DNA from: Escherichia coli
Lineage (GTDB): Bacteria > Pseudomonadota > Gammaproteobacteria > Enterobacterales > Enterobacteriaceae
Assembly: GCF_003790525.1 (NCBI RefSeq)
Contig: NZ_CP033635.1
Strand: one strand, 5' to 3'
Length of the DNA stretch: 64,000 nt
Part shown: piece after piece, positions 1,224 to 58,552 of the stretch
How the letters are laid out: every line of letters begins with the position of its first letter
How positions within the stretch are numbered: position 1 is the stretch's first letter
Position numbers and translations under genes: made by a program
Notes under the pieces: model-generated
What the model was told of the DNA's origin: nothing
Databases searched by the model: none
Seen by the model: only the letters and a program-made list of their open reading frames with translations

Positions 1224-1233
1224 GGAGTAGCCC

Positions 1234-1851: not shown

Positions 1852-1852
1852 A

Positions 1853-2707: not shown

Positions 2708-2749
2708 CAAATTGGTGCGGGGCAACCCGCACATTTCAGGATGTTAGGA

Positions 2750-3364: not shown

Positions 3365-3558
3365 GATCACCGTAATATTGCCGGATGGTGACGATTACGC
3401 GCGATTCGGCAATAATACGTTACAGTGTCACGTTTTTTTATCTCTTAAAGCACGCACTGCTTTTGCGGCTGGCCTCTTTTGCCGCAAAATAGTCGCCCGT
3501 GTTTCATTGCCCATTTCTGCTCATGCATCATCTACACATCTATCCGGATCTGAGCACT

Positions 3559-5463: not shown

Positions 5464-5587
5464 CACTAACTCCACCGTTATGCTTCACAAATATAAACCA
5501 GGAAAATAATTAACCTTGAAAGTCTAAGTTATGCTTTCCTGGCCCAAATTGAGATAGCGCAAATTTTGGTAGAACAGTTAAAAAATG

Positions 5588-6808: not shown

Positions 6809-6942
6809 CGCATACTCCCTATATTTTCGCGCTCCGAAATAATCTGTAGGCTATGGTGAAGCACTTCAATACGTGTCGTCAAATTTTTACTTAGGCATGT
6901 GATTAACAGCACATTTTTCGGGCTTTTTCGCTGAAATTTCCC

Positions 6943-7836: not shown

Positions 7837-7942
7837 ATTTAAAACATCTTATTTGAGATTATTAATATATTAGACAGAACAATTCGATTTTCCTAATCTA
7901 TCCATAAGCCTGATCCACAGGCATATTTAGCAAGGATTTCAA

Positions 7943-9196: not shown

Positions 9197-9620
9197 AAAA
9201 ATAAGTCCGGACTGAGGTAAATACCCGTCCGGACTTATTGCCTGCTCAAACCAACGTTAATAGCCATCCTAAAATAGACGAAGCGCCAGCCAATTCCCGC
9301 AGCGCATCTAGCGTCATCAGGATTATAAGTACCCAAATAAACGGATTCATTTTGCTGTGTGTCATTTATTACTGATGCGCAGTTATTCTACCGCTTTGTG
9401 GGTAGTAAAATAGTTAACCCGATCAAGACTACTATTATTGGTAGCTAAATTTCCCTTAAGTCACAATACGTTATTATCAACGCTGTAATTTATTCAGCGT
9501 TTGTACATATCGTTACACGCTGAAACCAACCACTCACGGAAGTCTGCCATTCCCAGGGATATAGTTATTTCAACGGCCCCGCAGTGGGGTTAAATGAAAA
9601 AACAAATTGAGGGTATGACA

Positions 9621-9929
9621 ATGAAAAAAGTATTAGCTCTGGTTGTTGCCGCTGCTATGGGTCTGTCTTCTGCCGCCTTTGCTGCAGAAACTGCGACCAC
9701 ACCTGCTCCGACTGCGACGACCACCAAAGCAGCGCCGGCGAAAACTACACATCATAAAAAACAGCATAAAGCAGCACCTGCCCAGAAAGCGCAGGCGGCT
9801 AAAAAGCATCATAAAAATGCGAAAGCTGAACAGAAAGCTCCTGAACAAAAAGCGCAGGCAGCGAAGAAACACGCCAAGAAACACAGCCATCAGCAACCGG
9901 CAAAACCTGCTGCACAACCCGCAGCGTAA
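9621..9929 (+). CDS. asr: acid shock protein Asr (periplasmic, Lys/Ala/His-rich, signal peptide)
   Basis: 102 aa from [21 protein letters not shown]..., low-complexity [14 protein letters not shown] repeats. Confidence 0.9.
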
Positions 9930-10021
9930 GTTTTCAACAGTAATGCTGGCGCGCCCCCTCGCGCCTGAAAATTACGGTGCTAAGCGGTTAACGTTTAGCA
10001 CCGCCTTTAGCGGAGGGTAGT

Positions 10022-10105
10022 ATGGTGGGCCGTTATCGCTTTGAGTTCATTCTTATCATCCTTATTTTATGCGCACTGATTGCCGCCCGTTTTTATCTTT
10101 CCTGA
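10022..10105 (+). CDS. ydgU: small hydrophobic protein (27 aa)
   Basis: ATG at 10022, 27 codons (MVGRYRFEFILIILILCALIAARFYLS); position between asr and ydgD as in K-12. Too short for the ORF track. Confidence 0.5.
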   Translation: MVGRYRFEFILIILILCALIAARFYLS

Positions 10106-10204
10106 TCGTAGTTATCTGATTTTACTCCCACTTTCATCCCGTCCCGTCTATAGTATTTATGAGGGTTTGCTTTTAATAATCATAATTACCCACCAGAGTG
10201 TGAT

Positions 10205-11026
10205 ATGCGTACAACCATTGCTGTAGTGTTGGGTGCAATTAGTTTGACGTCTGCTTTTGTGTTTGCAGATAAACCAGACGTTGCCAAATCGGCAAACGAT
10301 GAGGTCAGCACCCTGTTTTTTGGTCATGATGATCGTGTGCCAGTAAATGACACGACCCAATCACCGTGGGATGCGGTTGGGCAACTGGAAACGGCCAGCG
10401 GCAATTTATGTACGGCTACGCTGATTGCACCCAATCTGGCATTAACGGCAGGACACTGTTTATTGACGCCGCCAAAGGGTAAAGCCGATAAAGCGGTAGC
10501 GCTGCGTTTCGTGTCAAATAAAGGTCTTTGGCGCTATGAGATCCACGACATAGAAGGCCGCGTTGACCCGACACTAGGAAAGCGGTTAAAAGCAGATGGG
10601 GATGGCTGGATTGTACCTCCCGCAGCTGCGCCGTGGGACTTCGGTTTGATTGTGCTACGTAATCCCCCTTCTGGCATTACACCGTTGCCGTTATTTGAGG
10701 GAGATAAAGCCGCGCTTACCGCCGCATTAAAAGCAGCTGGTCGTAAAGTGACTCAGGCGGGCTACCCTGAAGATCATCTCGATACGTTGTACAGTCATCA
10801 AAACTGTGAAGTGACTGGCTGGGCGCAAACGTCGGTGATGTCGCATCAGTGCGATACCTTGCCGGGAGACAGCGGTTCGCCTCTGATGTTGCATACCGAT
10901 GACGGCTGGCAATTAATTGGGGTACAAAGCTCGGCTCCTGCCGCGAAAGATCGCTGGCGCGCCGATAACCGGGCCATTTCTGTTACCGGTATTCGCGACA
11001 AGCTGGATCAACTGTCGCAAAAATAA
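10205..11026 (+). CDS. ydgD: secreted trypsin-like serine protease family protein
   Basis: 273 aa with signal peptide, TAGHC and GDSGSP serine-protease motifs. Confidence 0.85.
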
Positions 11027-11064
11027 TGTTCAAACGCTGCCCGACAGTGCGGGCAGCGTGTTCA

Positions 11065-11394
11065 TCAGGCAAGTTTCACCATGATCATTCCAGCCAACAG
11101 CAAGACCAGGCCAATCCAGCCTTTACGATTTAACCGTTGACCAAACAAGATCCAACCTGCGGCTAACGTGGCGGCAATACCAAACCCGCCCCACAATGCA
11201 TAAGCGACAGACAAGTCGATCCCTTTAACGGCCTGAGAAAGCGCACTAAAGGCAGCCAGCACCGCCGCCAGGGAGAGCAAGCCAAATATTTTGCGACGAA
11301 AGCCGTCAGAAAATTTCAAAAAGACGTTAGCAACGATTTCCAGCACGATTGCCAATGCCAGCCAGGCGGCGTGAACCCATTCAAACTGCGCCAT
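11065..11394 (-). CDS. mdtI: SMR-family spermidine export protein subunit MdtI
   Basis: 109 aa, 4-TM small multidrug resistance fold; overlaps mdtJ 3' end. Confidence 0.88.
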
Positions 11395-11746
11395 GGTTCA
11401 CCTCCAGTTCAGGTTTACGCGCTTTACGAGTACCTGATTTGATCAACACAATCCCGGCGACCAGGGTGGTTAACCCGGCAATTTTCATCAGCGATAAACT
11501 TTCGTCGAATAACAAAACGCTAAACAAGGTAATAAATAAAATACCGATACCTTCCCACAGCGCATAAGCCACGCCTAAGGCGATCTTTTTAACGGCGAAA
11601 GAGAGAAATATATACGACAGAGAAATCATCACCAGCATTAAAATAAAGCCGCCATTTCCCTCACTGACGCTCGCCCATTTCATAGACAGCGTACCGGTAA
11701 TTTCTGTAGCAATAGCCAGACCTAATAAAATCCAATAAATATACAT
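11381..11746 (-). CDS. mdtJ: SMR-family spermidine export protein subunit MdtJ
   Basis: 121 aa, SMR fold, directly upstream of and overlapping mdtI. Confidence 0.88.
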
Positions 11747-12157
11747 TGTCCTTCTCCTGCAAGAGAATTATTTTAATTTTCGCTTAATTCAGCGAAACCA
11801 AAGTAAAGTGGTCAAGCCCCGCGCATAGCGCAAGCTTAAGCAGGAGAAAGGACTAAAGCGCGTTGCGCCAGTGCTGCTCACCTACGAGCAAGATAGTGGA
11901 TGAGGTACGAAGATGGGTAAATGTAGAAAATAACGTCCTGAACAAATTGTCCATAATATTACAATTATCCGCAGTGTTGCTTCTCGTCATCGCGGATGAT
12001 AATTGTCCTCGGTAGTTGAACACGCCTGATTTGTATCATAGCTTAAGAATTAACTCAAAATATTTTCACTTCTTTACCTGAGCGGTTTGATTTTCGTTAT
12101 GATGACGGAGCGAAAAAGACATTATTATTAGCAAAGGAAGAAAAAACGGGGACAAGC

Positions 12158-12294
12158 ATGGCAAAGCCGATCATCACGCTCAATGGCCTAAAAATCGTCA
12201 TTATGTTGGGAATGCTGGTCATTATTCTCTGCGGTATCCGTTTTGCCGCCGAGATCATCGTGCCGTTTATTCTCGCATTATTTATTGCTGTTAT
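12158..12294 (+). pseudogene. tqsA: 5' fragment of tqsA (AI-2 exporter), first ~46 codons; reading frame then runs into element DNA and stops after 7 foreign codons
   Basis: ATG at 12158 encodes [45 protein letters not shown]; the remainder of the gene resumes in frame at 23729. Confidence 0.85.
12286..12294. repeat. attL core (direct repeat 'tgctgttat')
   Basis: Identical 9-mer at 23720-23728; chromosomal tqsA sequence on the left, element-specific sequence on the right. Confidence 0.7.
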
Positions 12295-12365
12295 ATATAA
12301 CTTATTTCGCTTAACTAATTGATTTAATTAAATAATTTGCACTACAAAAAGTGCCAAAAATCGCA

Positions 12366-12391
12366 AATTAACTACACCATTAACTACACCG
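12366..12391. repeat. 26-bp element-end repeat 'aattaactacaccattaactacaccg' (tandem 'ttaactacacc'), candidate integrase arm-type site, left end
   Basis: Exact 26-bp copy at 23567-23592 next to the int start; both copies in direct orientation just inside the element ends. Confidence 0.6.
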
Positions 12392-13466
12392 TTCGGCGCA
12401 CTGTATGAAACAACGTGGAACAAATAGACACAAGCGGCAGGCTATACCGTTATCATTTTTCAGCTATCCGTCATGAAGCTGGTGGATGATCACGGATAAC
12501 CAGGCATCTACAGCGCCTTAAAAAGCTGAACCCGACAAACATTTCTGCTTATCGGGTCCGATCGCTCTTTCTACTCGTGGCAGATGAGTTTACTAGGAAG
12601 GGGGGAACATTGTATCAGGCTATCCCCTTTCTGTGCTGATTCGGCTGGTGAATGATCTACTTGGGGCACTACACTTTTCGGATAGTGCGGGTATCCGGTT
12701 TTCTGCCTCATCGAATTTTAAGCCTTCTGACGGCCTGTATATCATTTCCTGTGGAGTTGCCGCCCTGATAGCGAATACTGCGGCAGCATGTGATTTACCC
12801 CCCGTTCTGTTGATGTTTGATGTGGCTGGTTGATGTGCTGCCATGTTTTCCGCCAATGGTGGAAAAGCCCACCAGCGCAACGCAGGACGCATAAAACCAT
12901 TGCGATGACTCTGGACGCAAAACCACGTTTAACGATGTTTTGCACTGAACCAGAATACTGTTCGTTTTTGTCTCGATGTCCGTACGTATTACGTCCGCAC
13001 CTAATCCGGCATCATGCCCACCAGCGTAACGCATTTTTTTAATTTCGTGGCTGTGCGTCCACCAGCTACGCCGGAATGGGGTATTCCGTTTCAACGGAAC
13101 AGGTATGACGAACATAATCGCACCTTCTCCCGAAAACGGTGCGACCTGCATCATCGAAATGGTGATTCAGCTACTCGGCGATTTTCACCATTCAGAATCT
13201 GGCGGGTGAGTTATCCAGCTTCCACCAATGGGGGATTCTGGAACAATCAACGGGTTACGCCTTATCAGCAAAAAAGCACATCAACTGTAAAGGAAATCGT
13301 TATGGTTGCTGGTGGGCTGCGTCACCATCATGGTGATGATGCTGTCCAGTCAGCCGGAACGGTTGAACAGGGTGGCTATGGGTCACTCTGTTGTGCGTTA
13401 TTTGCGTGATCCTGGTACGGGGTGACTATCTTTCAGATAGTCGGTTGCCTGGTTACACGAAAAAAT

Positions 13467-13775
13467 TTACTTCCTGCGTTTATCCTGCTTTGTATGCCCG
13501 TGCTGAATGCCCCGCAGTGGATCTTCTTTTTTCAGGTCGATCCCCATGTCCGTTAGTGTTTTTGTGGCGGCGGTTCTTATGGCACAAATCAGGTCTCTTT
13601 CCGGTTCCCGGGTTATGGTTGCCTTCCGGATGCATGCCGTTCGTCGTTCCGTTACATACTGACGCGCTTCATCACTTGCCGCCTGTTTCAGTAACTCACC
13701 CCAGCGATTAGCCGCCCGTCGCCATAAACCTTTCGCTTCCAGTTCTTCCGCTTTGTCATCATGCACCATAAGCAT
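13467..13775 (-). CDS. PerC-family-like putative transcriptional activator (copy 2)
   Basis: N-terminal MVHDDKAEELEAKGLWRRAANRWGEL resembles PerC/Pch activators (recalled) and is a paralog of the 17352-17624 ORF; start chosen at an internal Met. Confidence 0.45.
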   Translation of the reverse strand: MLMVHDDKAEELEAKGLWRRAANRWGELLKQAASDEARQYVTERRTACIRKATITREPERDLICAIRTAATKTLTDMGIDLKKEDPLRGIQHGHTKQDKRRK

Positions 13776-13883
13776 AATCCCATTGATACCTGTTAACTCT
13801 GAATGGTTGGTTTCTGTTCTTTTGATAATTTCCCGCATAGCTTATTGTATGACAGTACTGTCCCACAATAAGGAGTTGCACGC

Positions 13884-14174
13884 ATGAGAATGACTAGGCA
13901 CAAAAAACAGATTCTTGAACTCTACAAACCTGAGTATCGCGATTGGGTGCGGGTGGAGGCCGGAGATCCGCCTTTTGATGTTCGTGGTGTGACAGTGCTG
14001 CTCTATGGTTCCGAATATCGGCGATATCACATAGAGGCAACACGAAGGACGCTAAACGCTATGGTTCGTGATAAGTTGCTGGAGCGTGTGAAAGTCCGTG
14101 AGCCACGTTTTGATGTGCGTATTGGTGGCGATGGTGCGCATTGCACGGTAATCCGCTATGGCCTGGTAAGGTAA
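13884..14174 (+). CDS. hypothetical protein (96 aa), only plus-strand gene in the left half of the element
   Basis: ORF with ATG start; internal duplicated motif PPFDVRGV / PRFDVRIGG; followed by the palindrome 'cagaatgtaaatttacattctg'. No family recognised. Confidence 0.4.
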   Translation: MRMTRHKKQILELYKPEYRDWVRVEAGDPPFDVRGVTVLLYGSEYRRYHIEATRRTLNAMVRDKLLERVKVREPRFDVRIGGDGAHCTVIRYGLVR

Positions 14175-14276
14175 GCCATCGGGTAAATCAGATGATTAAA
14201 TCACCAGAATGTAAATTTACATTCTGCCAGCCACCAGCTACCCTCCTCAAAATTGAGGACCCTTTTTATCAACTGG

Positions 14277-14558
14277 TTACCGCCGCAACCGTTCCGGCTT
14301 CTTCCACTGATAAGTGTTTTTCGCGCTCTCCTGATACATCGCCACGCGTCGACGGTATGCCAGCAACTCTAGTACTCTGATTCGTATGTCGCGCATATCC
14401 ACGCCGTTAAGCTCAATACCATCACGGCGCATTACATCAGCAACAACACGCACATAATTTTCGGCGGTCACGCTGTCCGGCTGCGTGGCCTGTTCGTCAT
14501 GCTGCTGGCTGATTCCGGTAACGCGGCGGATTAATCCCAGTAGTTCGACTTCTGTCAT
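14277..14558 (-). CDS. hypothetical protein (~94 aa) immediately downstream of the cos/terS region
   Basis: ORF-track frame 14277..14756; start moved to the internal Met (MTEVELLGL...) so that it does not overlap the cos-like sequence. Function unknown. Confidence 0.4.
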   Translation of the reverse strand: MTEVELLGLIRRVTGISQQHDEQATQPDSVTAENYVRVVADVMRRDGIELNGVDMRDIRIRVLELLAYRRRVAMYQESAKNTYQWKKPERLRR

Positions 14559-14591
14559 TGTGCCCCCATCGCTCTGATAGTCTGGTGTCGT

Positions 14592-14655
14592 CGGGTCCTT
14601 TCCGGCATGTGGACCCGTTACGGGGCGTCGACCTCGCGCGTTTTCACTATTTATG
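14592..14655 (+). other. lambda-like cos site, copy A (cosN plus flanking sequence)
   Basis: 'cgggtcctttccgg...gttacggggcgtcgacctcgcgcgttttcactatttatgaaaattttt' closely parallels the phage lambda cos junction as I recall it ('...acgggtcctttccggtgatccgacaggttacg|gggcggcgacctcgcgggttttcgctatttatgaaaattttccgg'); the 12-mer gggcgtcgacct at 14623-14634 differs from the lambda cohesive end at one base. Confidence 0.75.
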
Positions 14656-14671
14656 AAAATTTTTCGGGATC

Positions 14672-14770
14672 CATGTCCGGTTTCTCTGCAAGTTAACCAT
14701 ATGAAAAATATAAAAACATGCTTTCCATGAACCGGACATGCGCAAAAAACAGACACTAAAACCGGACATC
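14672..14770. promoter_or_regulatory. cosB-like array: three 'ccggacat' repeats (one inverted, two direct) with an AT-rich spacer, candidate binding sites for the element's Nu1-like protein
   Basis: 'catgtccgg' at 14672-14680, 'accggacatg' at 14731-14740, 'accggacatc' at 14761-14770; located on the cosB side of cos copy A, where lambda has R3-I1-R2-R1. Confidence 0.5.
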
Positions 14771-14837
14771 GAACCAGTTAACCGAAAGTGTGCACAAATC
14801 ACATTCATTGCTGCGAGTGATTAACAAGTTATCGGCT

Positions 14838-15272
14838 TTACTGTTCTGTATCGGCTGATTGCTCCATGCTGGCACGGCGAACGCTTACGGCATGACGCCA
14901 CCCAGCCAGAAAGCCAGCCATTTTATTTCGTGCCTTGCTCACATCTTCCGGTGAATAGCCGTAAATATGCAAACCTTCATCAAATCGATGTTCTGTTTCT
15001 TCACTGGAGTACTCGTCACGCTCAGATGAAAGCAGCCTCGCAAACATAATTTTTTCCAGCGCACTGGTTTCTACGTGATATCCGATGGTCTGAAGATGGC
15101 TTTTACCTGAATACCAAAGCAATGTATGCCCGATGTGATAACCGCCAGACTTTCCGCGATCCGCATTAAGATACGGCATCCCCTGTTTGGTCCATGCGCG
15201 AATAGTGGTTCTGTTAACCTTGAAATGTTCAGCTATTTCCTGCTGACTTACAAAACAAGCTTTATCAATCAT
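14838..15272 (-). CDS. terminase small subunit Nu1-like DNA-binding protein (possible packaging-specificity/redirecting factor)
   Basis: N-terminus QQEIAEHFKVNRTTIRAWTKQGMPYL parallels lambda Nu1 KKQLADIFGASIRTIQNWQEQGMPVL (winged HTH); C-terminal half unlike Nu1; flanked by cos-like sites. Confidence 0.65.
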   Translation of the reverse strand: MIDKACFVSQQEIAEHFKVNRTTIRAWTKQGMPYLNADRGKSGGYHIGHTLLWYSGKSHLQTIGYHVETSALEKIMFARLLSSERDEYSSEETEHRFDEGLHIYGYSPEDVSKARNKMAGFLAGWRHAVSVRRASMEQSADTEQ

Positions 15273-15339
15273 AATGTTACCTTAACTGCATGGTTAAATA
15301 TCAATCAAGTGGTGGTGGTGTCACCTTCACGGAAAAACG

Positions 15340-15403
15340 TCATAAATAGCGAAAACGTGCGAGGTCGACGCCCCGTAACGGGTCCACATGCCGGAAAGGA
15401 CCC
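15340..15403 (-). other. lambda-like cos site, copy B (inverted copy of A, cosN plus flank, without the 'ccggacat' array)
   Basis: Reverse complement matches copy A at 62 of 64 positions; lies ~70 bp upstream of the Nu1-like gene start on the same strand. Confidence 0.7.
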
Positions 15404-15404
15404 G

Positions 15405-15430
15405 CAAAAAAAGCCGGATTTCTCCGGCCT
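15405..15430 (-). terminator. rho-independent terminator after the head-gene cluster (minus strand)
   Basis: Minus-strand hairpin ggccggagaaatccggcc followed by a T-run; related hairpin motif at 17324-17345. Confidence 0.5.
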
Positions 15431-15502
15431 TGTCTCAGATGGTTTTCAGTATGCGATAGATGTCGCCGTCATCGCCCTGGTTTGTGCCATCGTTCCCCCT
15501 GC

Positions 15503-15838
15503 TTATCGGGCCAGCGGCTGAACGGATACGCCGGAACCCGCAAAGGCGGCGCATTTTTTCGCATCGGTGTCGACGCTCTCAGGCCAGTTAACGGCGGCAA
15601 TATTGAATATCCCCGTCTTGTAACACTGTGCTGATTTCTGCTTTGACGTGTCCACAGGGTACGAGGTCAGATAAACAGCCTTGCCAGATTCCTTACCATC
15701 CCACGCCTTAAACTCGCCATTGTCTGCCAGCATCAGCGGGGTAAATTCCTGAATAACGCCAGCATCAGCGGCAAAATGTACCAGCGTCGTGGATACCTGT
15801 TGGCTGCCTGAAAATAACTCAATGTATGGAGCGTCCAT
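15503..15838 (-). CDS. head decoration protein, lambda gpD-like
   Basis: 111 aa; motifs TPLMLADNGEFKAWDG, YKTGIF, NWPE and KKCAAFAG parallel lambda gpD (TPLMLDTSSRKLVAWDG, YKSGTF, LWPE, KKRTAFAG) as recalled. Confidence 0.7.
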   Translation of the reverse strand: MDAPYIELFSGSQQVSTTLVHFAADAGVIQEFTPLMLADNGEFKAWDGKESGKAVYLTSYPVDTSKQKSAQCYKTGIFNIAAVNWPESVDTDAKKCAAFAGSGVSVQPLAR

Positions 15839-15849
15839 AGAATCCCCCG

Positions 15850-16905
15850 TTAAGCAATTTTGACGGTAACAAATTTGCGAATATCTGCCGGTACAGGCTG
15901 CGGTGCGCTGTGCGTCTGCACGTACTCAATCGCCGGATCGCCGTCCTCAATCCAGTTTTTCGGGTAGTACATGTTTTGCGTTGCGCCCGTTCTTACCGCT
16001 TCCTGATCCATAATCGCACCATATGCCACCAGCCCTTTATTGTTGGTGTTACCCAGGACCAGCAAATCAGGCTCAAGGAAATATTTTTCGGTCCCGTCGC
16101 TGTCAGTGTATTTGCCGGAATAGACGATAAGGGCCAGATCACCAAGATAGCCTTTAAAGCTCACCACTTCGCCCAGGTTTTTACAGGCCAGCTCGGCGGC
16201 GGATTCTGATCCACGGGAAAGATCGTACAGTTCACGGAATTTTTTAAAGCTGCGTAATGTGCGCCATACCTCACCGCCCATAATCATGACGTTGGCGGGG
16301 CAACCTGCCTGATCAGCATAAAGCTCGATGTCATAGATTGGGTCGTGCATGTCTTTATCCTGCTGGGACCATTTTTTACCACTGGCCTGCTGTATGATGC
16401 AGTTTTCCGGTATTTTCCAGTCGATTTCATAGCGTTCTATGCCTTCGCCCTCAATGATGTTTTTTCCGGTCGTTACCGCATTCACCGCCAGCCATTCCAC
16501 GCGCGCCTTAATGGCGTTTATCTGGCGGCGCATGTTGCCAGTAATCAGGCGCATACGGCGGTAAGTTGGATCGTTAAGCTGTGCCGGATCTTCTCCATCC
16601 ATGCGCATGATGGTCTTTGTTGGATCGATTTCGTGCTTTGGCTTCATGTAGCCTGGTTTAATCGTGCTGGTTTCGTACCCTTTATCGCGCTGGACCTGAC
16701 TACCCACCATAGGAGAACAGAACGCTGACATCGTAACCTCTTCAATGTCCAGGGTGTCCAGCATGATGTTTTGGGTGTTGAAGGTCGCCACGTTCGGGAA
16801 AAACAGCGTGGTAAACAGCGGACTAAATTTATATTCCGAAATATCCCCGCGATTCAGGTACGCGAAAAGCTGGTTAGTTGTAAGTGCCTTTGCTTTGCCT
16901 GTCAT
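15850..16905 (-). CDS. major capsid protein, lambda gpE family
   Basis: 351 aa; YKFSPLFTTLFFP and PGYMKPKHEIDP parallel lambda gpE FKFDPLFLRLFF and PGYVKPKHEVNP; similar length to gpE. Confidence 0.75.
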   Translation of the reverse strand: MTGKAKALTTNQLFAYLNRGDISEYKFSPLFTTLFFPNVATFNTQNIMLDTLDIEEVTMSAFCSPMVGSQVQRDKGYETSTIKPGYMKPKHEIDPTKTIMRMDGEDPAQLNDPTYRRMRLITGNMRRQINAIKARVEWLAVNAVTTGKNIIEGEGIERYEIDWKIPENCIIQQASGKKWSQQDKDMHDPIYDIELYADQAGCPANVMIMGGEVWRTLRSFKKFRELYDLSRGSESAAELACKNLGEVVSFKGYLGDLALIVYSGKYTDSDGTEKYFLEPDLLVLGNTNNKGLVAYGAIMDQEAVRTGATQNMYYPKNWIEDGDPAIEYVQTHSAPQPVPADIRKFVTVKIA

Positions 16906-17111
16906 TATTCACCTCCGTGAACCTGATTGATACCCAGCGCCGCACGCAAATAGGTGCGCACCTGCCAGCCTGTTGACGGCTCAACCATCGCCAGCGGATC
17001 AAGTCCTGCCGCAATGCCTGCTTTTACATTCTGCTGGTGGCGTTCCTTGAGCGCCTCCACGATGTCGGGGCTTATGTAGACCGTCACCCCGCCTTTTTTC
17101 TCTTCTGCCAT
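16905..17111 (-). CDS. hypothetical protein (68 aa), first gene of the head cluster
   Basis: ORF with ATG start, stop overlaps the capsid gene start; no family recognised. Confidence 0.4.
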   Translation of the reverse strand: MAEEKKGGVTVYISPDIVEALKERHQQNVKAGIAAGLDPLAMVEPSTGWQVRTYLRAALGINQVHGGE

Positions 17112-17323
17112 AGTCAGAAATTCCTCTTTGACTTAAAAAATCATAACTGGATGTTCATCCAGTCCTGATTATAATCATGATTGCATTTTGCGCAACAATA
17201 TTGAGTTACGTTGCAAATTATGAAATGATTATCCCGATCATGTGTGTCAGTTCACCATAAAAAACCTCGTATACAAAAGCCCCATAAGCCCCCTGTGACC
17301 TTATCGGGCTTTTTTTAGGCGTA

Positions 17324-17345
17324 AAAAAGCCGGATTGCTCCGGCT
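17324..17345 (-). terminator. rho-independent terminator downstream of the PerC-like gene (minus strand)
   Basis: Minus-strand hairpin gccggagcaatccggc followed by TTTTTT. Confidence 0.5.
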
Positions 17346-17351
17346 GTGTGC

Positions 17352-17624
17352 TCACTTCTGCGGGTAGTTGCGCCATATTGCTTTGCCAATACCAGCTATC
17401 CCCATTTGTTTTTCAGTGCGATTAACTGACCTTTTCAGAGCGCCTAAATCATCCGGCGGCTCCGGTGGCCTCTGTGCCTTACGGATACATTCCGCGCGAC
17501 GCATTGCCACCTGTTCGCGCTCCTTGTCTGTCTCCACCAGCCTCATAACTTCACCCCATCGCGCCGCCGCCCTCCGGTAAAAGCCTTTTGCCTCGAGTTC
17601 CTCCGCTATGCGGTCATGTACCAT
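17352..17624 (-). CDS. PerC-family-like putative transcriptional activator (copy 1)
   Basis: MVHDRIAEELEAKGFYRRAAARWGEV...; paralog of the 13467-13775 ORF; start placed at the internal Met just after the ssb stop. Confidence 0.45.
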   Translation of the reverse strand: MVHDRIAEELEAKGFYRRAAARWGEVMRLVETDKEREQVAMRRAECIRKAQRPPEPPDDLGALKRSVNRTEKQMGIAGIGKAIWRNYPQK

Positions 17625-17634
17625 CGTCACCCCC

Positions 17635-18045
17635 TCAGAACGGAATATCATCACCGTAAGGGTCATCGCCTCCCGCTGGTGGCTGATTACCCTGTGTGCC
17701 TGTGGTTTTGCGTCTGTTCCCGCCAGGACGTGCCGCACGGGCACTGATTACGCTGTCTGCAATAACCTGCCAGCCCTGCCGCGTTTCCCCGTTCTGTCCG
17801 GTCCACTGGCTGACCTGCATCGTGCCGGATACGCTGGCAACGTCGCCTTTTTGATGTTTAGCCAGAAAGTCGGCCTGTTTGCCAAATGCGATGACCGATA
17901 ACCATAACGTCGCCTGTCCGTCCTGTGCCTGGCCGCATGGTAAAGATACCGCCATACGCGCCAGCGTCATCGGTGTACCCTTACTGGTCTGTTTTACCTG
18001 CGGGTCGTCCACCAGCCGCCCGTAAGCTGCTATCTGTGCTGTCAT
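17635..18045 (-). CDS. ssb: single-stranded DNA-binding protein (SSB)
   Basis: 136 aa with OB-fold-like core, Gly/Pro/Gln-rich linker and the acidic C-terminal tail ...DDIPF typical of SSB. Confidence 0.7.
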   Translation of the reverse strand: MTAQIAAYGRLVDDPQVKQTSKGTPMTLARMAVSLPCGQAQDGQATLWLSVIAFGKQADFLAKHQKGDVASVSGTMQVSQWTGQNGETRQGWQVIADSVISARAARPGGNRRKTTGTQGNQPPAGGDDPYGDDIPF

Positions 18046-18284
18046 GCTGTCTGCTCTCCGGTTTTAACGTTGATGGTTGTTACCTGTTCTGCTTCGGCAA
18101 TATCCCGCTCTGTCAGCGTGGCAAAGTTTGCCGCCGTCGTTGTCATGAATGCGCTTATCAGTTCGGGATGTGCTTTCGCGTATCCTTCCCCTGTGTTGCG
18201 GTCGATGATTTTTATCGCCACCCTCAGCCAGTGCTCTGTAAGGTCAATGGCGCGGTGATCTGTCTTTTTGTGGCTTACCTTCAT
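18042..18284 (-). CDS. hypothetical protein (80 aa)
   Basis: ORF in the replication module, overlaps ssb start by 4 nt (coupled); no family recognised. Confidence 0.45.
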   Translation of the reverse strand: MKVSHKKTDHRAIDLTEHWLRVAIKIIDRNTGEGYAKAHPELISAFMTTTAANFATLTERDIAEAEQVTTINVKTGEQTA

Positions 18285-18287
18285 GAT

Positions 18288-18656
18288 TTACTCCAGAGTA
18301 CCGCTATTGCTGCTGTCGTTAACCGGATACCAGGCAAATACCATCGATTCACCACAGTGAACAAACTTCTTATCCGGCAGATAAAGGCACTCGCACATTC
18401 CCTCATCAGGACTATGCGGACTCATGCCCAGCTCACTGGTCAGCACGGGTAAGATTTCGCGGCAGGTGTTCCCCGCACCGAAATAATCAACCTCACAAAG
18501 CGCCCATGCAGCAATCGGGCTGTACCATTCCGTGCCGTCGTCGTCTTTGAACTTAGCCCACCAGCCAGGAAGGGCAGTTGATATGCTCAGTGTTTCAATT
18601 TCAGTGTTCATAAATTTACCTTCGGTATTTTGTCCTGCTGTTCGATTTTTATTCAT
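18288..18656 (-). CDS. hypothetical protein (122 aa or shorter)
   Basis: ORF directly downstream of the iteron region; Cys-containing; no family recognised. Confidence 0.45.
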   Translation of the reverse strand: MNKNRTAGQNTEGKFMNTEIETLSISTALPGWWAKFKDDDGTEWYSPIAAWALCEVDYFGAGNTCREILPVLTSELGMSPHSPDEGMCECLYLPDKKFVHCGESMVFAWYPVNDSSNSGTLE

Positions 18657-18860
18657 TGCTCACCATCTCTCACTTTTACTACTCACTTTTTAAAGCGTCT
18701 CGCTTCGTCTCACTTGAGATTTTTGTGTTTTGTATGTGCATGTTTCATAAGTGTTTTTTCACTGCTCACTTTTGAGCATGTATACAGGTGAGAAAGTGAG
18801 TAATTGTGTTAATATTTTGTAAAAACCTCACCATTACTCACTTTTACTACTCACTTTTTA
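18657..18860. repeat. iteron array, candidate replication origin ('ctcactttt' repeated ~7 times, one inverted, around an AT-rich core)
   Basis: Copies at 18669, 18682, 18709 (variant), 18765, 18793 (inverted), 18837 and 18850; 'ctcacttttactactcacttttta' occurs twice; lies immediately 3' of the rep ATPase gene. Confidence 0.6.
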
Positions 18861-20264
18861 CAGTGGTCCTACATCATCACCATCAATGTAAATCACGGCG
18901 TCTTTTTCCAGTTTGGCTAACCATCGCCGCATATTTTTCACGTCATACCCAAGCCGTTTCATGTCATCACGTAACAGCGGGATCGTGCACTTGTCGCCGT
19001 TCTGTGTGCGTGAACGGATGCACCCCCATAGCGCGGTATGGTTTTCCGTCTTGTTGCCTGCCTCCTCGATGCGCTCCAGTTCAGCAGGGGCGCGGGGAAC
19101 GTCAATCACCACCATGGACACAATTTCTTCGCCATCTGTATCGGTGAACACCTCCACGCTTTTAAGGTCGTATGCACTCTCTTTTGGCTCCTCTGCGTCC
19201 TTCATCTTCGTACACGCCGCAACCAGTGCTGTAACGTCTGAATTTTCCCTGCTGATTCGGTACTCTGCATCAAGCGCGGCACGGAATGCACTGGAACCAC
19301 GCGCCCCCTTTGTTTCATCCTTGCCGGAATGGTGAACCACCAGCACCGTGGCCCCTGTGGCCTGCTTTATCGCGTCACACCCCTGGATAAATGCGCCCAT
19401 ATCACGGGAATCATTTTCATCATTCCCACCAAAGCAACGGGCCAGCGTGTCGATCACAATCAGCCGCACATTTTCGCCCGTTCTGCTCTTAACAAGTCCG
19501 GCAGTCCTGATAACCTGCTCCACATAGTCAGGCGATGCAGGGAAAACAGGCGCGTTAATGATGCACAAATCTGTAACCACCTTGTCGTGGGTTATCTCCC
19601 ACGCCTTAACGCGGCGTTTTACGCCCATGCTGCCTTCACCAGCGATATAGATAACCGCACCCTTACTTACCCTGCGGCCTCCCCATGCCATACCTGTGGC
19701 AACATGGCACGACCAGGAAATGGCGAGGAACGATTTATAAGAACCGCTGGCCCCGTAGGTGCTGCATAATGACTCAGCCGGAATAAGCCCCTTAATGACG
19801 TAGCTTTGCTGCGCATCGAATCCCTCAGAACCCCATGAGATGGGAAGTGTGATTTTTCGCTTTCCGCCATTCATGACCAGGCTTTCCCCTCTCTCCCATG
19901 TTTCCCGTAGTCGTGGTAGCTGGTCGCTCCAGTCCTCCAGCAGTTCGAAATTTTCAGAAAGTAGCCGCGCCTCCTGGACTCCGGCGATCGCCAGTTTTGT
20001 GGCAATGGTCAGCATCTGCATATCGTCCAGGTTTCCGGCGCGTATGACCTTTACCCTGTATCGTCCTTCATCAACAATCTGTAAGTTGTCCAGTTCGCTT
20101 AACTGATAACGGCCCAGATAAACCGGAGGGATGGGATCGCCTGCTTTTTTGGCCTGTGCAATCATGTAATGTTCTGCAAAGGAGTGAGCATTATCACCCG
20201 CAAAAATAACCGCCTCAGTGTGTTTATCTTTCGGTAACAGTTTTACGTTCGGTGCAAGTTTCAT
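18858..20264 (-). CDS. replication protein with RecA-like P-loop ATPase domain (RepA/DnaB-like, satellite pri-rep type)
   Basis: 468 aa; Walker A YGASGSYKS, Walker B-like RLIVIDTL, HHSGK motif; C-terminal region possibly DNA-binding; iterons directly downstream. Confidence 0.65.
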   Translation of the reverse strand: MKLAPNVKLLPKDKHTEAVIFAGDNAHSFAEHYMIAQAKKAGDPIPPVYLGRYQLSELDNLQIVDEGRYRVKVIRAGNLDDMQMLTIATKLAIAGVQEARLLSENFELLEDWSDQLPRLRETWERGESLVMNGGKRKITLPISWGSEGFDAQQSYVIKGLIPAESLCSTYGASGSYKSFLAISWSCHVATGMAWGGRRVSKGAVIYIAGEGSMGVKRRVKAWEITHDKVVTDLCIINAPVFPASPDYVEQVIRTAGLVKSRTGENVRLIVIDTLARCFGGNDENDSRDMGAFIQGCDAIKQATGATVLVVHHSGKDETKGARGSSAFRAALDAEYRISRENSDVTALVAACTKMKDAEEPKESAYDLKSVEVFTDTDGEEIVSMVVIDVPRAPAELERIEEAGNKTENHTALWGCIRSRTQNGDKCTIPLLRDDMKRLGYDVKNMRRWLAKLEKDAVIYIDGDDVGPL

Positions 20265-20548
20265 TTCTTACCCCCTGCGACCAGCATTTCACGGATTTTG
20301 CGGATATAACTTGCAGCACGTTTCTGATTAACGGCTTTACGATGGCCCACCAGCGTGAAATCACGCCGGAACTGATAAACAGGCATAACGCAGTCATATT
20401 CGTAGCCTTCACGGCGGTAAGTGATGCGACGTTCCTCCACGCCCTTAATCATTACCGTGCCGCCGTAGTTATCACGGAAAATATCGCCGGGACGGATTTC
20501 AGGACGAGCGGGGCCGCTGGCATTAACGCCAGAATTTTTATTTTTCAT
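20261..20548 (-). CDS. hypothetical protein (95 aa), translationally coupled upstream of rep
   Basis: ORF overlapping the rep start by 4 nt; basic; no family recognised. Confidence 0.45.
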   Translation of the reverse strand: MKNKNSGVNASGPARPEIRPGDIFRDNYGGTVMIKGVEERRITYRREGYEYDCVMPVYQFRRDFTLVGHRKAVNQKRAASYIRKIREMLVAGGKK

Positions 20549-20553
20549 GTTTT

Positions 20554-20781
20554 TTATTCTCCGGTGTGCTGTTCTTTATATCTGTCGTGAATTGCCATCA
20601 CTGTATTTAATTCATTAATAACAGCCGTTAATAGCGTACGCACGGCAGAAAACATCATTGAATCAGATTCATCGCCACTTTCCTGCACATCAATTAAATT
20701 AAGTAGTAATGCGTCCATTTCCTTTGCGCGGATTAATGCCTTTTCACAATGAAAAATAACACCAAAGGGTATTTTATTCAT
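20554..20781 (-). CDS. hypothetical protein (~75 aa; ORF-track frame extends to 20823)
   Basis: First gene of the minus-strand replication operon; start uncertain (MNKIPFGV... versus the upstream Met). Confidence 0.4.
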   Translation of the reverse strand: MNKIPFGVIFHCEKALIRAKEMDALLLNLIDVQESGDESDSMMFSAVRTLLTAVINELNTVMAIHDRYKEQHTGE

Positions 20782-21060
20782 GACTCCCCTCCTGACGGAT
20801 ACGGGCGGCGAATACAGCGACACAACCGGACGGGCAACGGTTACGCGCTTCGCGTTCCGTCCAGGCGGTCACGTGGATAATTTGAGATTCTCCGGCACTC
20901 AGTGCCAGAAAACGCCACACAAAGGCGGTTTGTGTGTGCGCTAGTCGTGGGGTATGCTGTGTTCCAGCCATAATCGTTACTCCTGTTAACGGTTTGGTTA
21001 GACGCCCTGCATGTGTTACAGCACTGCGGGGCGTTGTCTTTTTAACGGCTTTCGTGATAG

Positions 21061-21104
21061 GGTGTACACCTATCAAGCAAAAACATAACGCTATAGGTGT
21101 ACAC
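21061..21104. promoter_or_regulatory. perfect 12-bp inverted repeat (gtgtacacctat ... ataggtgtacac), candidate operator abutting a small regulator gene
   Basis: Read directly from sequence; the 3' half ends 1 nt before the ATG at 21105. Confidence 0.5.
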
Positions 21105-21299
21105 ATGTCAACAGTTATTAAGCGAGATAAAAAACCAAAGGGAACAGGAAAAGCCCCCCCATTCCATATGCGAATAGCTCCAGAACTGAAAGAGCAGTTT
21201 GATAATGAGGCCAGCAATGATGGGGTAAGCCTAGCCAACTGGCTTAAAGAGTTGGGGCGCGCCGAACTAAAGCGACGCGGCATTGAACCTAAAGGCTGA
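21105..21299 (+). CDS. small basic protein (64 aa), possible ribbon-helix-helix/YlcI-YnfO-like prophage regulator
   Basis: MSTVIKRDKKPKGTGKAPPFHMRIAPELKEQFDNEASNDGVSLANWLKELGRAELKRRGIEPKG; family assignment from memory only; divergent from the replication operon. Confidence 0.4.
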   Translation: MSTVIKRDKKPKGTGKAPPFHMRIAPELKEQFDNEASNDGVSLANWLKELGRAELKRRGIEPKG

Positions 21300-21302
21300 T
21301 GT

Positions 21303-21426
21303 ATGACTGAAAAGCAGACCGATAACAAACTTTCTCTACCAGAGAATAAACCAGCAGGCTTCTTACCAAGAAAAATCCTTGATGAGATCAAACGCCGCCA
21401 GCGCCGCAAGGCCAAAGAGCAGGAAT
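21303..21426 (+). CDS. possible small protein (41 aa, Lys/Arg-rich C-terminus)
   Basis: ATG 4 nt after the preceding stop; MTEKQTDNKLSLPENKPAGFLPRKILDEIKRRQRRKAKEQE; followed by a strong hairpin terminator. Too short for the ORF track. Confidence 0.25.
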
Positions 21427-21460
21427 AGCCCACCAGCAAGCCAGCACACTGATCACATTG

Positions 21461-21490
21461 GCCACCGTGACAGGTGGCCTTTTCTTTGCC
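21461..21490 (+). terminator. rho-independent terminator (ggccaccgtgacaggtggcc + T-rich tract)
   Basis: Perfect 7-bp stem with 6-nt loop followed by ttttctttg, just after the 41-codon ORF. Confidence 0.55.
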
Positions 21491-21752
21491 CGTTATCCGG
21501 CAATTGTGGCGCTTCGCCACACGGTTGATATAATTCCCCTGCTCAGATTCATTTTTTGCGCGGCAGGTAAATTGTTCAGAAAGGCGGCTCCTTATCGGGG
21601 CCGCTTTTTTTATGTCTGAAAAACCGCGATTTTGTTGTTTTTCAGTTTCACCAGGCCGAACGAAGCCCCGCCCATGTTCGGGCGTATATCCAGTCTTCAT
21701 GGTTAAATCTCTGTATTAGTGGATGGGTGGCGGCTGTGTGCCGCCAGTCTTT

Positions 21753-21941
21753 TTAGTGAACTGCCTCGCAGCTTTCCTTCCATGCCAGAACTTCGGATAA
21801 AGACCAGCCAACGGAACGACCGCCCAGCTTACGCCGTGATGGGAATTGTCCGGCCTTTTCCAGGCGGTAGCGGCATGAGCGGCTAAGGCCTGTTAGCTTT
21901 TCGCATTCTTTTTCACGTATAAAGCGATCAGTGCTTAACAC
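21753..21941 (-). CDS. alpA: AlpA-family (Phage_AlpA) transcriptional regulator
   Basis: 62 aa; ...EKLTGLSRSCRYRLEKAGQFPSRRKLGGRSVGWSLSEVLAW... matches the AlpA HTH signature; adjacent to int. Confidence 0.75.
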   Translation of the reverse strand: MLSTDRFIREKECEKLTGLSRSCRYRLEKAGQFPSRRKLGGRSVGWSLSEVLAWKESCEAVH

Positions 21942-22315
21942 TATTGCCCCCTTTCGTTTCTTAAAGAGTTATTTCGTGTTCTATTGCGTTGGGATGTGTC
22001 TGATTGTGTCAGGGTGATTCAGAGTTGGCAAATGTTGGTGGCGGGTATTTTACAGAAACGGGGTGATTTTAATAAAAATCATTTTAATTCAGTATTATGC
22101 AAAGGCATAAAATCTCGTTTTATGCCTTTTTTCTCACTATTTAAAGCGTTATTCGCTAATGTATAAAAAACCAGTTGAGCATTAAAAATCAGCAACTTAT
22201 AAATCTGTATACTTTTTGACCTCTTGTTCGTGGTTGTTTCACGTTGTTGTGTATTGTTGCACGTTGTATCTGTGCACTTATCCAGTATGCGCATACTGAA
22301 AAAACACGAAAAAAA

Positions 22316-23563
22316 TTATTTTCTTCTGGCTACTGGTAGCGTGGTTACGTTTTCATGTGCTCCCGCCAGTATCTCCAACCGCTCCACCCACATATCCAGC
22401 GCATTGCGTTTCGCATCCAGATAACGGGAATGATTATAAACTCGCTGCATTCCTGGCATCTGGTGGCCTGTAAGCTGCTCCACGACGTGAGGATCCACGC
22501 CTAAATCGTTCAGCATCGTTGTAAAGGTGCGCCGGATGTCATGCAGTGACCATTGAGGGTGTTTTAGCCTCCTGTGCGCTAATCTGCCGTACTGCGATAC
22601 GCTGGCCTCCTGTTTCACTTCCCCCAGTAATAAGCCCGTGTGCCTGTTCTGCTCCACCAGCCGCGTGACGAACGGCAGGATCGCTTCCGGTATGGGCCGG
22701 AATATTGCGACCTTCGTTTTGCTGTGCTCCTTCGGAACGGTCCAGAGCATTTCCGTGAAATCCCACTCCCCGATCTCCGATAACCTCAGTTCTACCGTCC
22801 TGGCTCCGAAGACAATCAGGAGGCGGATTAGTGCGACGTAGTAAGGGGAAAATATTTTTTTGTCCAGTGCCTGCAATAATTCGCCCAGTTCTTTGGTGCT
22901 TAAGACACGTTCGCTTATATCCGGTTTTTTCCCAACGTCCGCCACGTTCAGATCGTCCAGAACGTTGCTGATTGCATAGCGCCGCCTCCGGCAAAACTTA
23001 AGCGCCTGTTTGCACGCCTGTAGCACGAATCCGGCAGTAACAGGCGTTCGCTTTGCCACCCGATCAAAACAGGCCAGCCAGTGCCGTAGCTCGCATTTAT
23101 CCAGCGGCATAGCACCAATGTGCTGTATTACGTGATTATTAAGTCGCCTTTTCAGGGCGATATAATCCACGCGGTTTTCCTTTACGTAAGACTCAAGCCA
23201 GTAGGTGAGCGCATCTCCAACCGTTACAGGCTTTAACGCTTCCTGCATGGTGTAATTCATCTCATGACGTGGATTTTTCCCCTCAGCCAGCCATGCGCGA
23301 CACTGGGCGGCTTTTTCCCTGGCTGATTTCAGGCTCAGATCAGGATAATTTCCCAGCTTAATACGTTCCGGTCGTGTCTCTCTTCCCGTTCCGGCCCTGT
23401 AAGTGAAATACCAGGTTAAAAGGCCGCTGGTTGAATGCCTGACGCTCAGATTTCCACCGTCATTAAGAAAGGCTGTTTTTTGGGCGGGTGTGCCGTTGAT
23501 TTTCCTTAGCTGTGTATCGCTCAGCTTGTTAAGTGCTCTGGTCATAATTTTGAATCCGGTCAT
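22316..23563 (-). CDS. int: tyrosine site-specific integrase (P4-type)
   Basis: ~415 aa; N-terminal arm-binding-like region, C-terminal catalytic motifs (HDIRRTF, GHQ..VYNHSRY); located at the element's right end next to the arm-type repeat. Exact start uncertain (GTG/ATG/ATG cluster). Confidence 0.85.
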   Translation of the reverse strand: MTGFKIMTRALNKLSDTQLRKINGTPAQKTAFLNDGGNLSVRHSTSGLLTWYFTYRAGTGRETRPERIKLGNYPDLSLKSAREKAAQCRAWLAEGKNPRHEMNYTMQEALKPVTVGDALTYWLESYVKENRVDYIALKRRLNNHVIQHIGAMPLDKCELRHWLACFDRVAKRTPVTAGFVLQACKQALKFCRRRRYAISNVLDDLNVADVGKKPDISERVLSTKELGELLQALDKKIFSPYYVALIRLLIVFGARTVELRLSEIGEWDFTEMLWTVPKEHSKTKVAIFRPIPEAILPFVTRLVEQNRHTGLLLGEVKQEASVSQYGRLAHRRLKHPQWSLHDIRRTFTTMLNDLGVDPHVVEQLTGHQMPGMQRVYNHSRYLDAKRNALDMWVERLEILAGAHENVTTLPVARRK

Positions 23564-23566
23564 CAC

Positions 23567-23592
23567 AATTAACTACACCATTAACTACACCG
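23567..23592. repeat. 26-bp element-end repeat (same as 12366-12391), right end, immediately upstream of int
   Basis: Exact 26/26 identity with the left copy. Confidence 0.6.
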
Positions 23593-23719
23593 ATCGTTGC
23601 ACAAAGGGCTACAACGTGAAACAAGCTGGAACAAGAAAAATCACAAATTTGTTTATAATCAAAAACATAATGCACAACCTGAAACATTATGAAACGGCAA
23701 AAAACACTAATTGATAAAG

Positions 23720-23728
23720 TGCTGTTAT
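23720..23728. repeat. attR core (direct repeat 'tgctgttat')
   Basis: Identical to 12286-12294; element sequence on the left, tqsA sequence on the right. Confidence 0.7.
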
Positions 23729-24626
23729 TCTTAACCCGCTGGTGCAACACATGGTCCGCTGGCGAGTGCCGCGTGTACTGGCGGTGTCGATTTTGATGAC
23801 CATCATCGTGATGGCGATGGTGTTGCTGTTAGCTTATCTGGGTTCCGCGCTCAACGAGTTGACGCGGACGTTACCGCAATATCGCAACTCTATTATGACG
23901 CCGCTGCAAGCGATTGAACCGTTGTTGCAACGCGTAGGGATTGATGTCTCAGTTGACCAACTGGCGCATTACATTGATCCGAACGCGGCAATGACGTTGC
24001 TCACCAACTTATTGACGCAGTTATCTAATGCCATGTCATCAATCTTTTTATTGCTGCTGACGGTGCTGTTTATGTTGCTCGAAGTGCCACAATTGCCCGG
24101 AAAATTTCAGCAAATGATGGTGCGTCCGGTTGAAGGGATGGCGGCGATTCAGCGTGCGATTGACAGTGTGTCTCATTATCTGGTGCTGAAAACAGCCATC
24201 AGCATCATCACCGGCCTGGTCGCCTGGGCGATGCTCGCCGCACTCGATGTTCGCTTCGCTTTTGTCTGGGGATTGCTGGCCTTTGCGCTTAATTACATCC
24301 CTAATATTGGTTCAGTTCTCGCGGCAATCCCCCCTATCGCTCAGGTACTGGTGTTTAATGGCTTCTACGAAGCGTTGCTGGTGCTGGCGGGATATCTGCT
24401 AATTAATCTGGTCTTCGGCAATATTCTGGAGCCGCGCATCATGGGACGTGGGCTGGGGCTTTCCACATTGGTGGTATTTTTGTCGTTGATTTTTTGGGGA
24501 TGGTTGTTAGGACCGGTGGGTATGCTGCTTTCCGTGCCGTTAACAATTATTGTCAAAATTGCGCTTGAACAAACAACGGGAGGTCAAAGCATCGCCGTTC
24601 TGTTAAGCGATCTCAACAAAGAGTGA
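23729..24626 (+). pseudogene. tqsA: 3' portion of tqsA (AI-2 exporter, AI-2E/PerM family), separated from its 5' end by the element
   Basis: In-frame continuation ([12 protein letters not shown]...) of the fragment ending at 12294; upstream frame closed by tga/taa in element DNA; only an internal GTG/ATG could restart translation. Confidence 0.8.
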
Positions 24627-24649
24627 CGGCCTCCGCAGAGGCCGTCAGG
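24624..24649. terminator. hairpin between convergent tqsA and pntB (gacggcctc-cgca-gaggccgtc)
   Basis: Perfect 9-bp stem read from sequence; no strong T-run, so the terminator call is tentative. Confidence 0.4.
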
Positions 24650-24650
24650 G

Positions 24651-26042
<1,392 letters not shown>

Positions 26043-55855: not shown

Positions 55856-58552
<2,697 letters not shown>

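Follow-up and report, generated by a model that had tools for sequence, protein, structure and literature searches.

An EcCI042-type element, very probably a phage-inducible chromosomal island, splits the autoinducer-2 exporter gene tqsA of Escherichia coli

The stretch analysed is a 64-kb window of an Escherichia coli chromosome (the whole stretch of DNA, whose positions serve as coordinates throughout), in which tqsA, the gene for the exporter of autoinducer-2 (AI-2), is interrupted after codon 46 by an island of 11,425 bp (12295–23719). The inserted DNA is very probably a Gram-negative phage-inducible chromosomal island (PICI) of the EcCI042/EcCIK1516 group, seated at its dedicated attachment (att) site. 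Around it lies ordinary E. coli core chromosome, running from ynfF through mlc-asr-ydgD-mdtIJ-tqsA-pntBA to tus-fumCB-manA-uidABC-malXY-rsx, and the two junctions comprise the following features.

12158–12322, plus strand: tqsA 5' fragment (codons 1–46, eight foreign codons and TGA; 54 amino acids)
12286–12294, plus strand: attL core TGCTGTTAT (reverse complement of ATAACAGCA, the core published for the att site of EcCI042)
23720–23728, plus strand: attR core TGCTGTTAT, a 9-bp direct repeat of the attL core
23721–24626, plus strand: tqsA 3' fragment (codons 44–344; first possible starts GTG 23742 and ATG 23751)

The 5' fragment opens with the ATG at 12158 and closes with the TGA at 12320–12322; its residues 1–46 are those of TqsA, with codon 46 reading ATA rather than ATT (isoleucine is kept) and 12295 being the first island base, and its foreign tail comprises eight codons (YNLFRLTN), where an earlier note on this DNA had counted seven. 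The 3' fragment is preceded in frame by TGA (23712–23714), TAA (23715–23717) and AGT, and its earliest in-frame starts correspond to codon 51 (GTG) and codon 54 (ATG). The 9-bp core covers tqsA codons 43–46, and deletion of 12295–23728 in silico yields an uninterrupted TqsA of 344 amino acids that matches PDB 7NB6 over residues 1–344; a search of the window for an intact, junction-spanning second copy of tqsA found none. The junctions and the rejoined open reading frame (ORF) bear out the truncation after codon 46 that the earlier note had proposed, and its description of in-frame stops ahead of the 3' part, with only an internal GTG or ATG available as a start, holds at the positions given here. 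Both halves are annotated in RefSeq as pseudogenes in every occupied genome inspected, including strains CM2 and 042.

The arrangement recurs across the species. A 267-bp query for the empty site showed tqsA to be uninterrupted in 5,170 of 5,422 matching complete E. coli genomes, while a 541-bp query for the occupied site, spanning int-attR-tqsA and counted as a junction at a coverage of at least 80%, identified the junction in 244 of 5,426 complete genomes; in the remainder, base 1 of the 9-bp core is precisely where the alignment to the 541-bp query begins. Approximately 4.5% of complete genomes are therefore occupied, with nearly all interruptions attributable to this integrase family, and the combination of an empty site in 5,170 genomes with the same junction in 244 rules out chance or an assembly artefact. 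The occupants of the site are diverse mosaics, the pattern of repeated integration expected under regulated gene integrity.

Both element and site are already known: this is a published PICI group at a published att site, and the disruption of tqsA has been catalogued twice and is flagged in public annotation. EcCI042 (E. coli 042, 11 kb) and EcCIK1516 (11.4 kb) are listed with the core ATAACAGCA and the att gene tqsA in Table S1 of Fillol-Salom et al. 2018 (PMC6092414); tqsA appears among the core genes disrupted by integrating elements in Bobay et al. 2013, and Mageeney et al. 2020 name it as a new candidate for regulated gene integrity.

The ORFs of the island were scanned with Pfam and PHROG and compared with the annotation of strain CM2, giving the following features from left to right.

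12435–13466, strand not assigned: rare left-end cargo with no recognisable gene in Pfam, PHROG and Rfam scans
13467–13838, minus strand: PerC-family regulator, copy 2 (Pfam PF06069, E=7.6e-23; shorter in the CM2 annotation, 13467–13769)
14277–14558, minus strand: conserved hypothetical gene (PHROG, phrog_1561)
14838–15272, minus strand: rpp (redirecting phage packaging) homologue, 144 amino acids (PDB 6HLK RppC, E=4.3e-32)
15503–15838, minus strand: lambda gpD-like head decoration gene (Pfam PF02924, E=4e-17)
15850–16905, minus strand: lambda gpE-like major capsid gene (Pfam PF03864, E=2e-49)
17352–17624, minus strand: PerC-family regulator, copy 1 (Pfam PF06069, E=4.5e-39)
17635–18045, minus strand: single-strand DNA-binding protein (SSB) gene (Pfam PF00436)
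18659–18866, strand not assigned: iteron cluster directly 3' of the helicase gene (repeat families D4, D7 and D8)
18858–20264, minus strand: RepA-like replicative helicase, AAA_25 (Pfam PF13481, E=8.5e-43)
20261–20548, minus strand: DUF4222/RgdR-like gene (RPGD in place of the RGD motif)
20774–20971, minus strand: Icd-like gene (name taken over from the syntenic gene annotated in CM2)
21105–21299, plus strand: HicB/YlcI/Arc-like small DNA-binding protein gene (CM2 annotation, PHROG)
21753–21941, minus strand: alpA regulator gene (Pfam PF05930, E=5e-18)
22316–23545, minus strand: tyrosine integrase with P4-type arm-binding and catalytic domains (Pfam Arm-DNA-bind_3 and Phage_integrase)

The PICI assignment follows from the joint presence of int, alpA, the RepA helicase, SSB, two PerC genes and the gpE-like and gpD-like genes. 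The island further displays the traits by which PICIs are recognised, namely a terminal integrase with att sites, AlpA next to int, a replication module of its own, a length of 11,425 bp within the range of ∼8–15 kb, unidirectional transcription (apart from the small HicB/YlcI-like gene and a single hypothetical ORF, every family-assigned gene lies on the minus strand), and cos sites with an Rpp for packaging hijack, the latter by homology only. The iteron cluster is a probable replication origin, judged by analogy with the origin position in characterised PICIs (PMC6092414). No tail, portal, large-terminase or lysis family was found in the Pfam and PHROG scans of the island ORFs. A capsid-forming PICI was considered and rejected, the island carrying gpE-like and gpD-like genes only and no complete HK97 module, TerS, TerL or HNH; a P4-like satellite was likewise rejected, with psu, delta, sid, the alpha primase-helicase and cnr absent from the same scans and the helicase being of the RepA-type AAA_25 class. 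Resemblance to P4 is limited to the type of integrase and the Icd-like gene.

Outside the island, the window is 99.98–99.99% identical to strain CM2, whereas the island itself differs from that of CM2 by clustered substitutions within 15750–20800 and by a stretch of 186 bp that replaces 503 bp upstream of the Icd-like gene (especially 20592–20779); near-identical flanks around a divergent centre indicate recent recombination between PICIs, or turnover, within one host lineage. Elsewhere in the window, blastn self-matches at 96-bp offsets with ∼90–91% identity mark 58082–58503, corresponding to the rsxC region of CM2 (locus L003, ∼5800–6220), which looks like an ordinary tandem coding repeat.

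The 186-bp for 503-bp replacement in the early region might also be taken as a sign of decay, and the related O-island 51 was first annotated as a cryptic prophage (CP-933C) with P4 ancestry, an origin that the P4-type arm-binding domain of the integrase and the Icd-like gene would suit. On such grounds the island could be an immobile remnant of a P4-like satellite or cryptic prophage and the split tqsA a fixed scar, yet the Pfam and PHROG scans returned no P4 hallmark gene, the core PICI modules are all intact ORFs, the two att cores and four arm repeats are perfect, the close relative EcCICFT073 is experimentally mobile, and the diverse mosaic variants at the site point to ongoing integration events; a remnant is accordingly highly improbable, and an EcCI042-type PICI remains the preferred assignment.

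Within this PICI, the rpp homologue, which also has weak Nu1/helix-turn-helix matches in Pfam, is bracketed by a 78-nt inverted repeat whose arms are 91% complementary.

14592–14669, plus strand: cos-like arm downstream of rpp, containing the cosN-like GGGCGTCGACCT (14623–14634)
15327–15404, minus strand: cos-like arm upstream of rpp, containing the cosN-like GGGCGTCGACCT (15362–15373)

The cosN-like 12-mer GGGCGTCGACCT, one mismatch away from the lambda cohesive-end sequence, occurs in these two inverted copies against 0.01 expected by chance. Sixty-nine temperate phages of E. coli carry an intergenic site with 80–88% identity to the cos-like arm; in phage PhiR5_1 this site is located between Rz and the Nu1 terminase gene, and it is between Rz and Nu1 that cos lies in lambda. 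By sequence, the two arms flanking rpp probably correspond to cos1 and cos2 of EcCICFT073.

The ends of the island carry, in addition to the cores, a direct repeat of 69 nt whose left and right copies share 77% identity.

12366–12434, plus strand: left attP arm, with the tandem TTAACTACACC repeat at 12368–12390
23567–23635, plus strand: right attP arm, with the tandem TTAACTACACC repeat at 23569–23591

The tandem TTAACTACACC-A-TTAACTACACC lies 72 bp inside attL and is found again, in the same orientation, shortly upstream of the start codon of int; no mismatch is seen in either att core or in any of the four arm repeats. EcCI042 bears GACTACACCAGTGACTACACC in both of its arms, so that the arm repeats co-vary within an island, and the tandem repeats are most likely arm-type Int-binding sites. 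The same positions also bear on a published annotation. The 26-bp arm repeat AATTAACTACACCATTAACTACACCG (12366–12391 and 23567–23592 in the window) is, as its reverse complement, the exact ‘att site core’ given for EcCIDI14 in Table S1 of Fillol-Salom 2018, and in E. coli clone D i14 (locus L005, 3549–3572 and 14165–14188) the AATTAACTACACCATTAACTACACCG repeat is found within each end of a related island that has an integrase 86% identical to that of the window and sits in an ISEc45 transposase gene; the published EcCIDI14 ‘core’ is thus probably an Int-binding repeat of the arm type rather than the site of crossover.

The ORF-poor left end of the island holds a rare segment. None of the ORFs in 12435–13466 matched Pfam or PHROG, and a 119-amino-acid ORF of this cargo, searched against 5.8 billion proteins, returned, besides near-identical copies, fragmentary Escherichia hypotheticals at 26–60% query coverage; of the 5,426 complete E. 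coli genomes, only three, CM2, PKF11 and PKF4, have the segment at full length. An Rfam scan of 11800–24800 (E≤1) gave two sub-threshold chance matches, symR at 24.7 bits and a Dictyostelium snoRNA, and no structured RNA at the junctions or in the left end. The segment is probably non-coding or degenerate, the alternative being rare cargo. Close by, on the minus strand that carries the island genes, a terminator-like hairpin of 14 pairs with a T-run occupies 12559–12528; it would be predicted to stop island transcripts before the tqsA stub, ydgV and mdtJI. Read-through from the island past attL into mdtJI was considered as a further effect of the insertion, and this strong terminator-like structure speaks against it.

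Together, these elements suggest a mechanism in which the PICI would integrate by site-specific recombination at the 9-bp core TGCTGTTAT within tqsA, the P4-type integrase, encoded next to attR, probably binding the tandem ACTACACC arm repeats near both ends and presumably exchanging strands inside the core. Integration leaves a 54-amino-acid N-terminal stub and a promoterless 3' fragment without its own start codon, and tqsA would be restored if the island were excised precisely. The island would probably be induced by a lambdoid cos helper phage, by homology with EcCICFT073, an island that lambda and phi80, both lambdoid cos phages, mobilise and whose Rpp heterodimerises with the helper TerS (PMC6092414, PMC6739421). 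It would then replicate from its own RepA/iteron origin, and Rpp would be expected to pair with the helper small terminase (Nu1), such that the cos sites of the island are packaged instead of those of the phage. The type of helper, induction and transfer are all drawn here by analogy with EcCICFT073.

The consequence for tqsA was assessed from both fragments. The island provides a 9-bp core only and no replacement gene segment, and in-frame stops bar any fusion from the island side. The earlier note had held that no gene end is rebuilt and that tqsA is probably inactivated, and had named an in-frame N-terminus supplied by the island as evidence to the contrary; such an N-terminus was looked for, only the core and the stops were found, and its view of the insertion stands. 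The foreign tail of the 5' stub ranges from two to eight codons among related islands, and no conserved fusion product is therefore formed. Against the Pfam family AI-2E (AI-2E_transport), the rejoined TqsA scores 265.4 bits (profile 2–326) and the 3' piece 234.3 bits (profile 40–326), with no match for the 5' piece; the ratio of intact to best-fragment score is 1.13, above the cutoff of 1.1 for domain disruption in Mageeney et al. 2020. Since no gene end is replaced and what remains is a 54-amino-acid stub and a promoterless, startless 3' fragment, tqsA is very probably a null allele for as long as the island is integrated, and we infer that an occupied strain loses AI-2 export, with the AI-2 and biofilm consequences that this would entail.

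A functional or partly functional TqsA made from the 3' fragment, starting at GTG 23742 or ATG 23751 and giving a mild phenotype, would be the alternative. From 23742 an ORF of 294 amino acids is indeed open and retains profile 40–326, and no decay is seen in the fragment. A simple-consensus scan of 23300–23900 for a sigma-70-like promoter into the fragment nevertheless found none in the stretch that separates int from the fragment, and int itself is read in the opposite direction, away from the fragment. The predicted anti-Shine–Dalgarno pairing is +1.5 kcal/mol at GTG 23742 and −2.8 kcal/mol at ATG 23751, where the native start gives −5.7 kcal/mol and random positions average −1.7 kcal/mol, and the GTG-initiated product that the earlier note had allowed for thus finds neither promoter nor Shine–Dalgarno backing in the sequence. 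In the cryo-electron microscopy structure of TqsA, the main contact within the pentamer on the cytoplasmic side is made by helix H1 (Thr7–Phe29) of the five protomers, and H2 (Ala31–Trp57) lies horizontally, embedded in the membrane (PMC9475539); the cut falls within H2, and a product restarted at codon 51 or 54 would be without H1 and most of H2. Taken together, functional TqsA from either start is exceedingly unlikely.

Several points weigh against the reading of an active PICI that silences tqsA. A promoter directed outwards from attR might escape the simple-consensus scan if it is weak or not of the sigma-70 type, and the internal ATG at codon 69 (23796) has Shine–Dalgarno-like pairing of −6.1 kcal/mol, such that some N-terminally deleted TqsA polypeptide might still be made from ATG 23796. 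Paralogous AI-2E family proteins in E. coli might partly compensate for its loss. As to the island, deletion of the capsid-like/decoration-like genes of EcCICFT073 left interference and transfer unchanged (PMC6092414).

Whether the split serves a purpose is a separate question. The tqsA halves rejoin to an intact 344-amino-acid ORF in the window, and likewise in six further occupied genomes drawn from different lineages; in one more, strain G8, the locus analysed holds the 3' half only, which is stop-free. Regulated gene integrity, in which cue-driven excision and re-integration would toggle tqsA and AI-2 export to the benefit of host or satellite, would be in keeping with halves free of stops and frameshifts in the sampled occupied genomes, with excision re-creating the tqsA ORF exactly, with the place of tqsA on the candidate list of Mageeney et al. 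2020, and with the spontaneous excision and circularisation reported for E. coli PICIs (PMC6092414). PICI excision is, however, tied to helper induction and hence normally to lysis, so that a restored gene would rarely benefit the cell, and recent or repeated acquisition also explains intact halves, the islands being mosaic even between near-identical hosts. Intact halves fit a reversible switch and recent or repeated acquisition equally well, and regulation of this kind is on balance unlikely. That the choice of tqsA as att site is itself adaptive, the satellite acting as a reversible switch of cell–cell signalling, is similarly doubtful; were it so, AI-2 export would be off when the island is integrated and restored on excision, altering quorum sensing and biofilm formation and perhaps also exposure to, or induction of, lambdoid helper phages.

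For an EcCI042-type PICI with tqsA very probably null while it is in place, the main value of the assignment lies in annotation: the region should be labelled an EcCI042-type PICI and not a cryptic prophage. Approximately 1 in 22 complete E. coli genomes would be a natural tqsA-null through PICI occupancy, which is relevant to comparisons of AI-2 export, biofilm and motility between strains. A new biological role for phage satellites would arise only if integration were a regulated, reversible switch of AI-2 export.

Among known elements, EcCI042 and EcCIK1516 are the closest counterparts, sharing with the window island the att gene tqsA, the 9-bp core, the size class of 11–11.4 kb and the gene order, and tqsA is split in the same way in E. 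coli 042. Protein identities between EcCI042 and the window are high for the integrase (92.7%), AlpA (93.7%), Rpp (95%) and the capsid protein (95.5%), whereas the early/replication module is divergent (helicase 63.5%, DUF4222/RgdR 60%), consistent with the known modular mosaicism of these islands. The window island has an additional 1.8 kb of left-end cargo (12435–14271), comprising the second PerC gene and the rare 1-kb segment; the window island lacks a gene of 414 bp that EcCI042 carries between rpp and the gpD-like gene, and the arm repeats of the two islands differ by co-varying substitutions.

EcCICFT073 offers the experimental precedent, being alike in int-alpA, an origin 3' of rep, rgdR and perC, the capsid-like c1499, the decoration-like c1500, Rpp and two cos sites. 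It differs in having another integrase and an att site, GGACATATTT, that is intergenic (ycfD-phoQ) and disrupts no gene, and the Rpp of the window is nearest to the RppC type. O-island 51/CP-933C of E. coli O157:H7 belongs to the same island family and encodes a DUF4222-type RgdR (Flockhart et al. 2012, PMC3378721); a DUF4222-type protein likewise lies upstream of the helicase gene in EcCI042 and in the window island, the 042 protein, which is 99 amino acids long and has RGD at residues 20–22, being identified as RgdR (PMC3378721). O-island 51 occupies a different chromosomal site, and its RgdR has the RGD needed for activation of type III secretion, which is decided by residue 20 of the motif (PMC3378721), where the window homologue has RPGD.

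Gene-splitting elements classed under active lysogeny or regulated gene integrity, such as the Listeria comK prophage and the Bacillus subtilis sigK skin element (PMC7192596), show the same integration into a conserved coding region that is left unrestored and is rebuilt by precise excision; unlike these, the occupant of tqsA is a helper-dependent satellite, for which regulated excision is only a candidate. A second kind of occupant is found in strain G8 (NZ_CP060057.1; locus 1–13720), where a capsid-forming PICI has the same int-attR-tqsA junction and shares the alpA, Icd-like, DUF4222, SSB and PerC backbone with the window island. The G8 element alone carries an HK97-type head/packaging module (capsid, protease, portal, connectors, HNH, TerS and TerL) and has a primase, whereas the window island has the RepA helicase and only the gpE-like and gpD-like genes and Rpp; with both at the same tqsA attR, one att/int module therefore serves two types of satellite.

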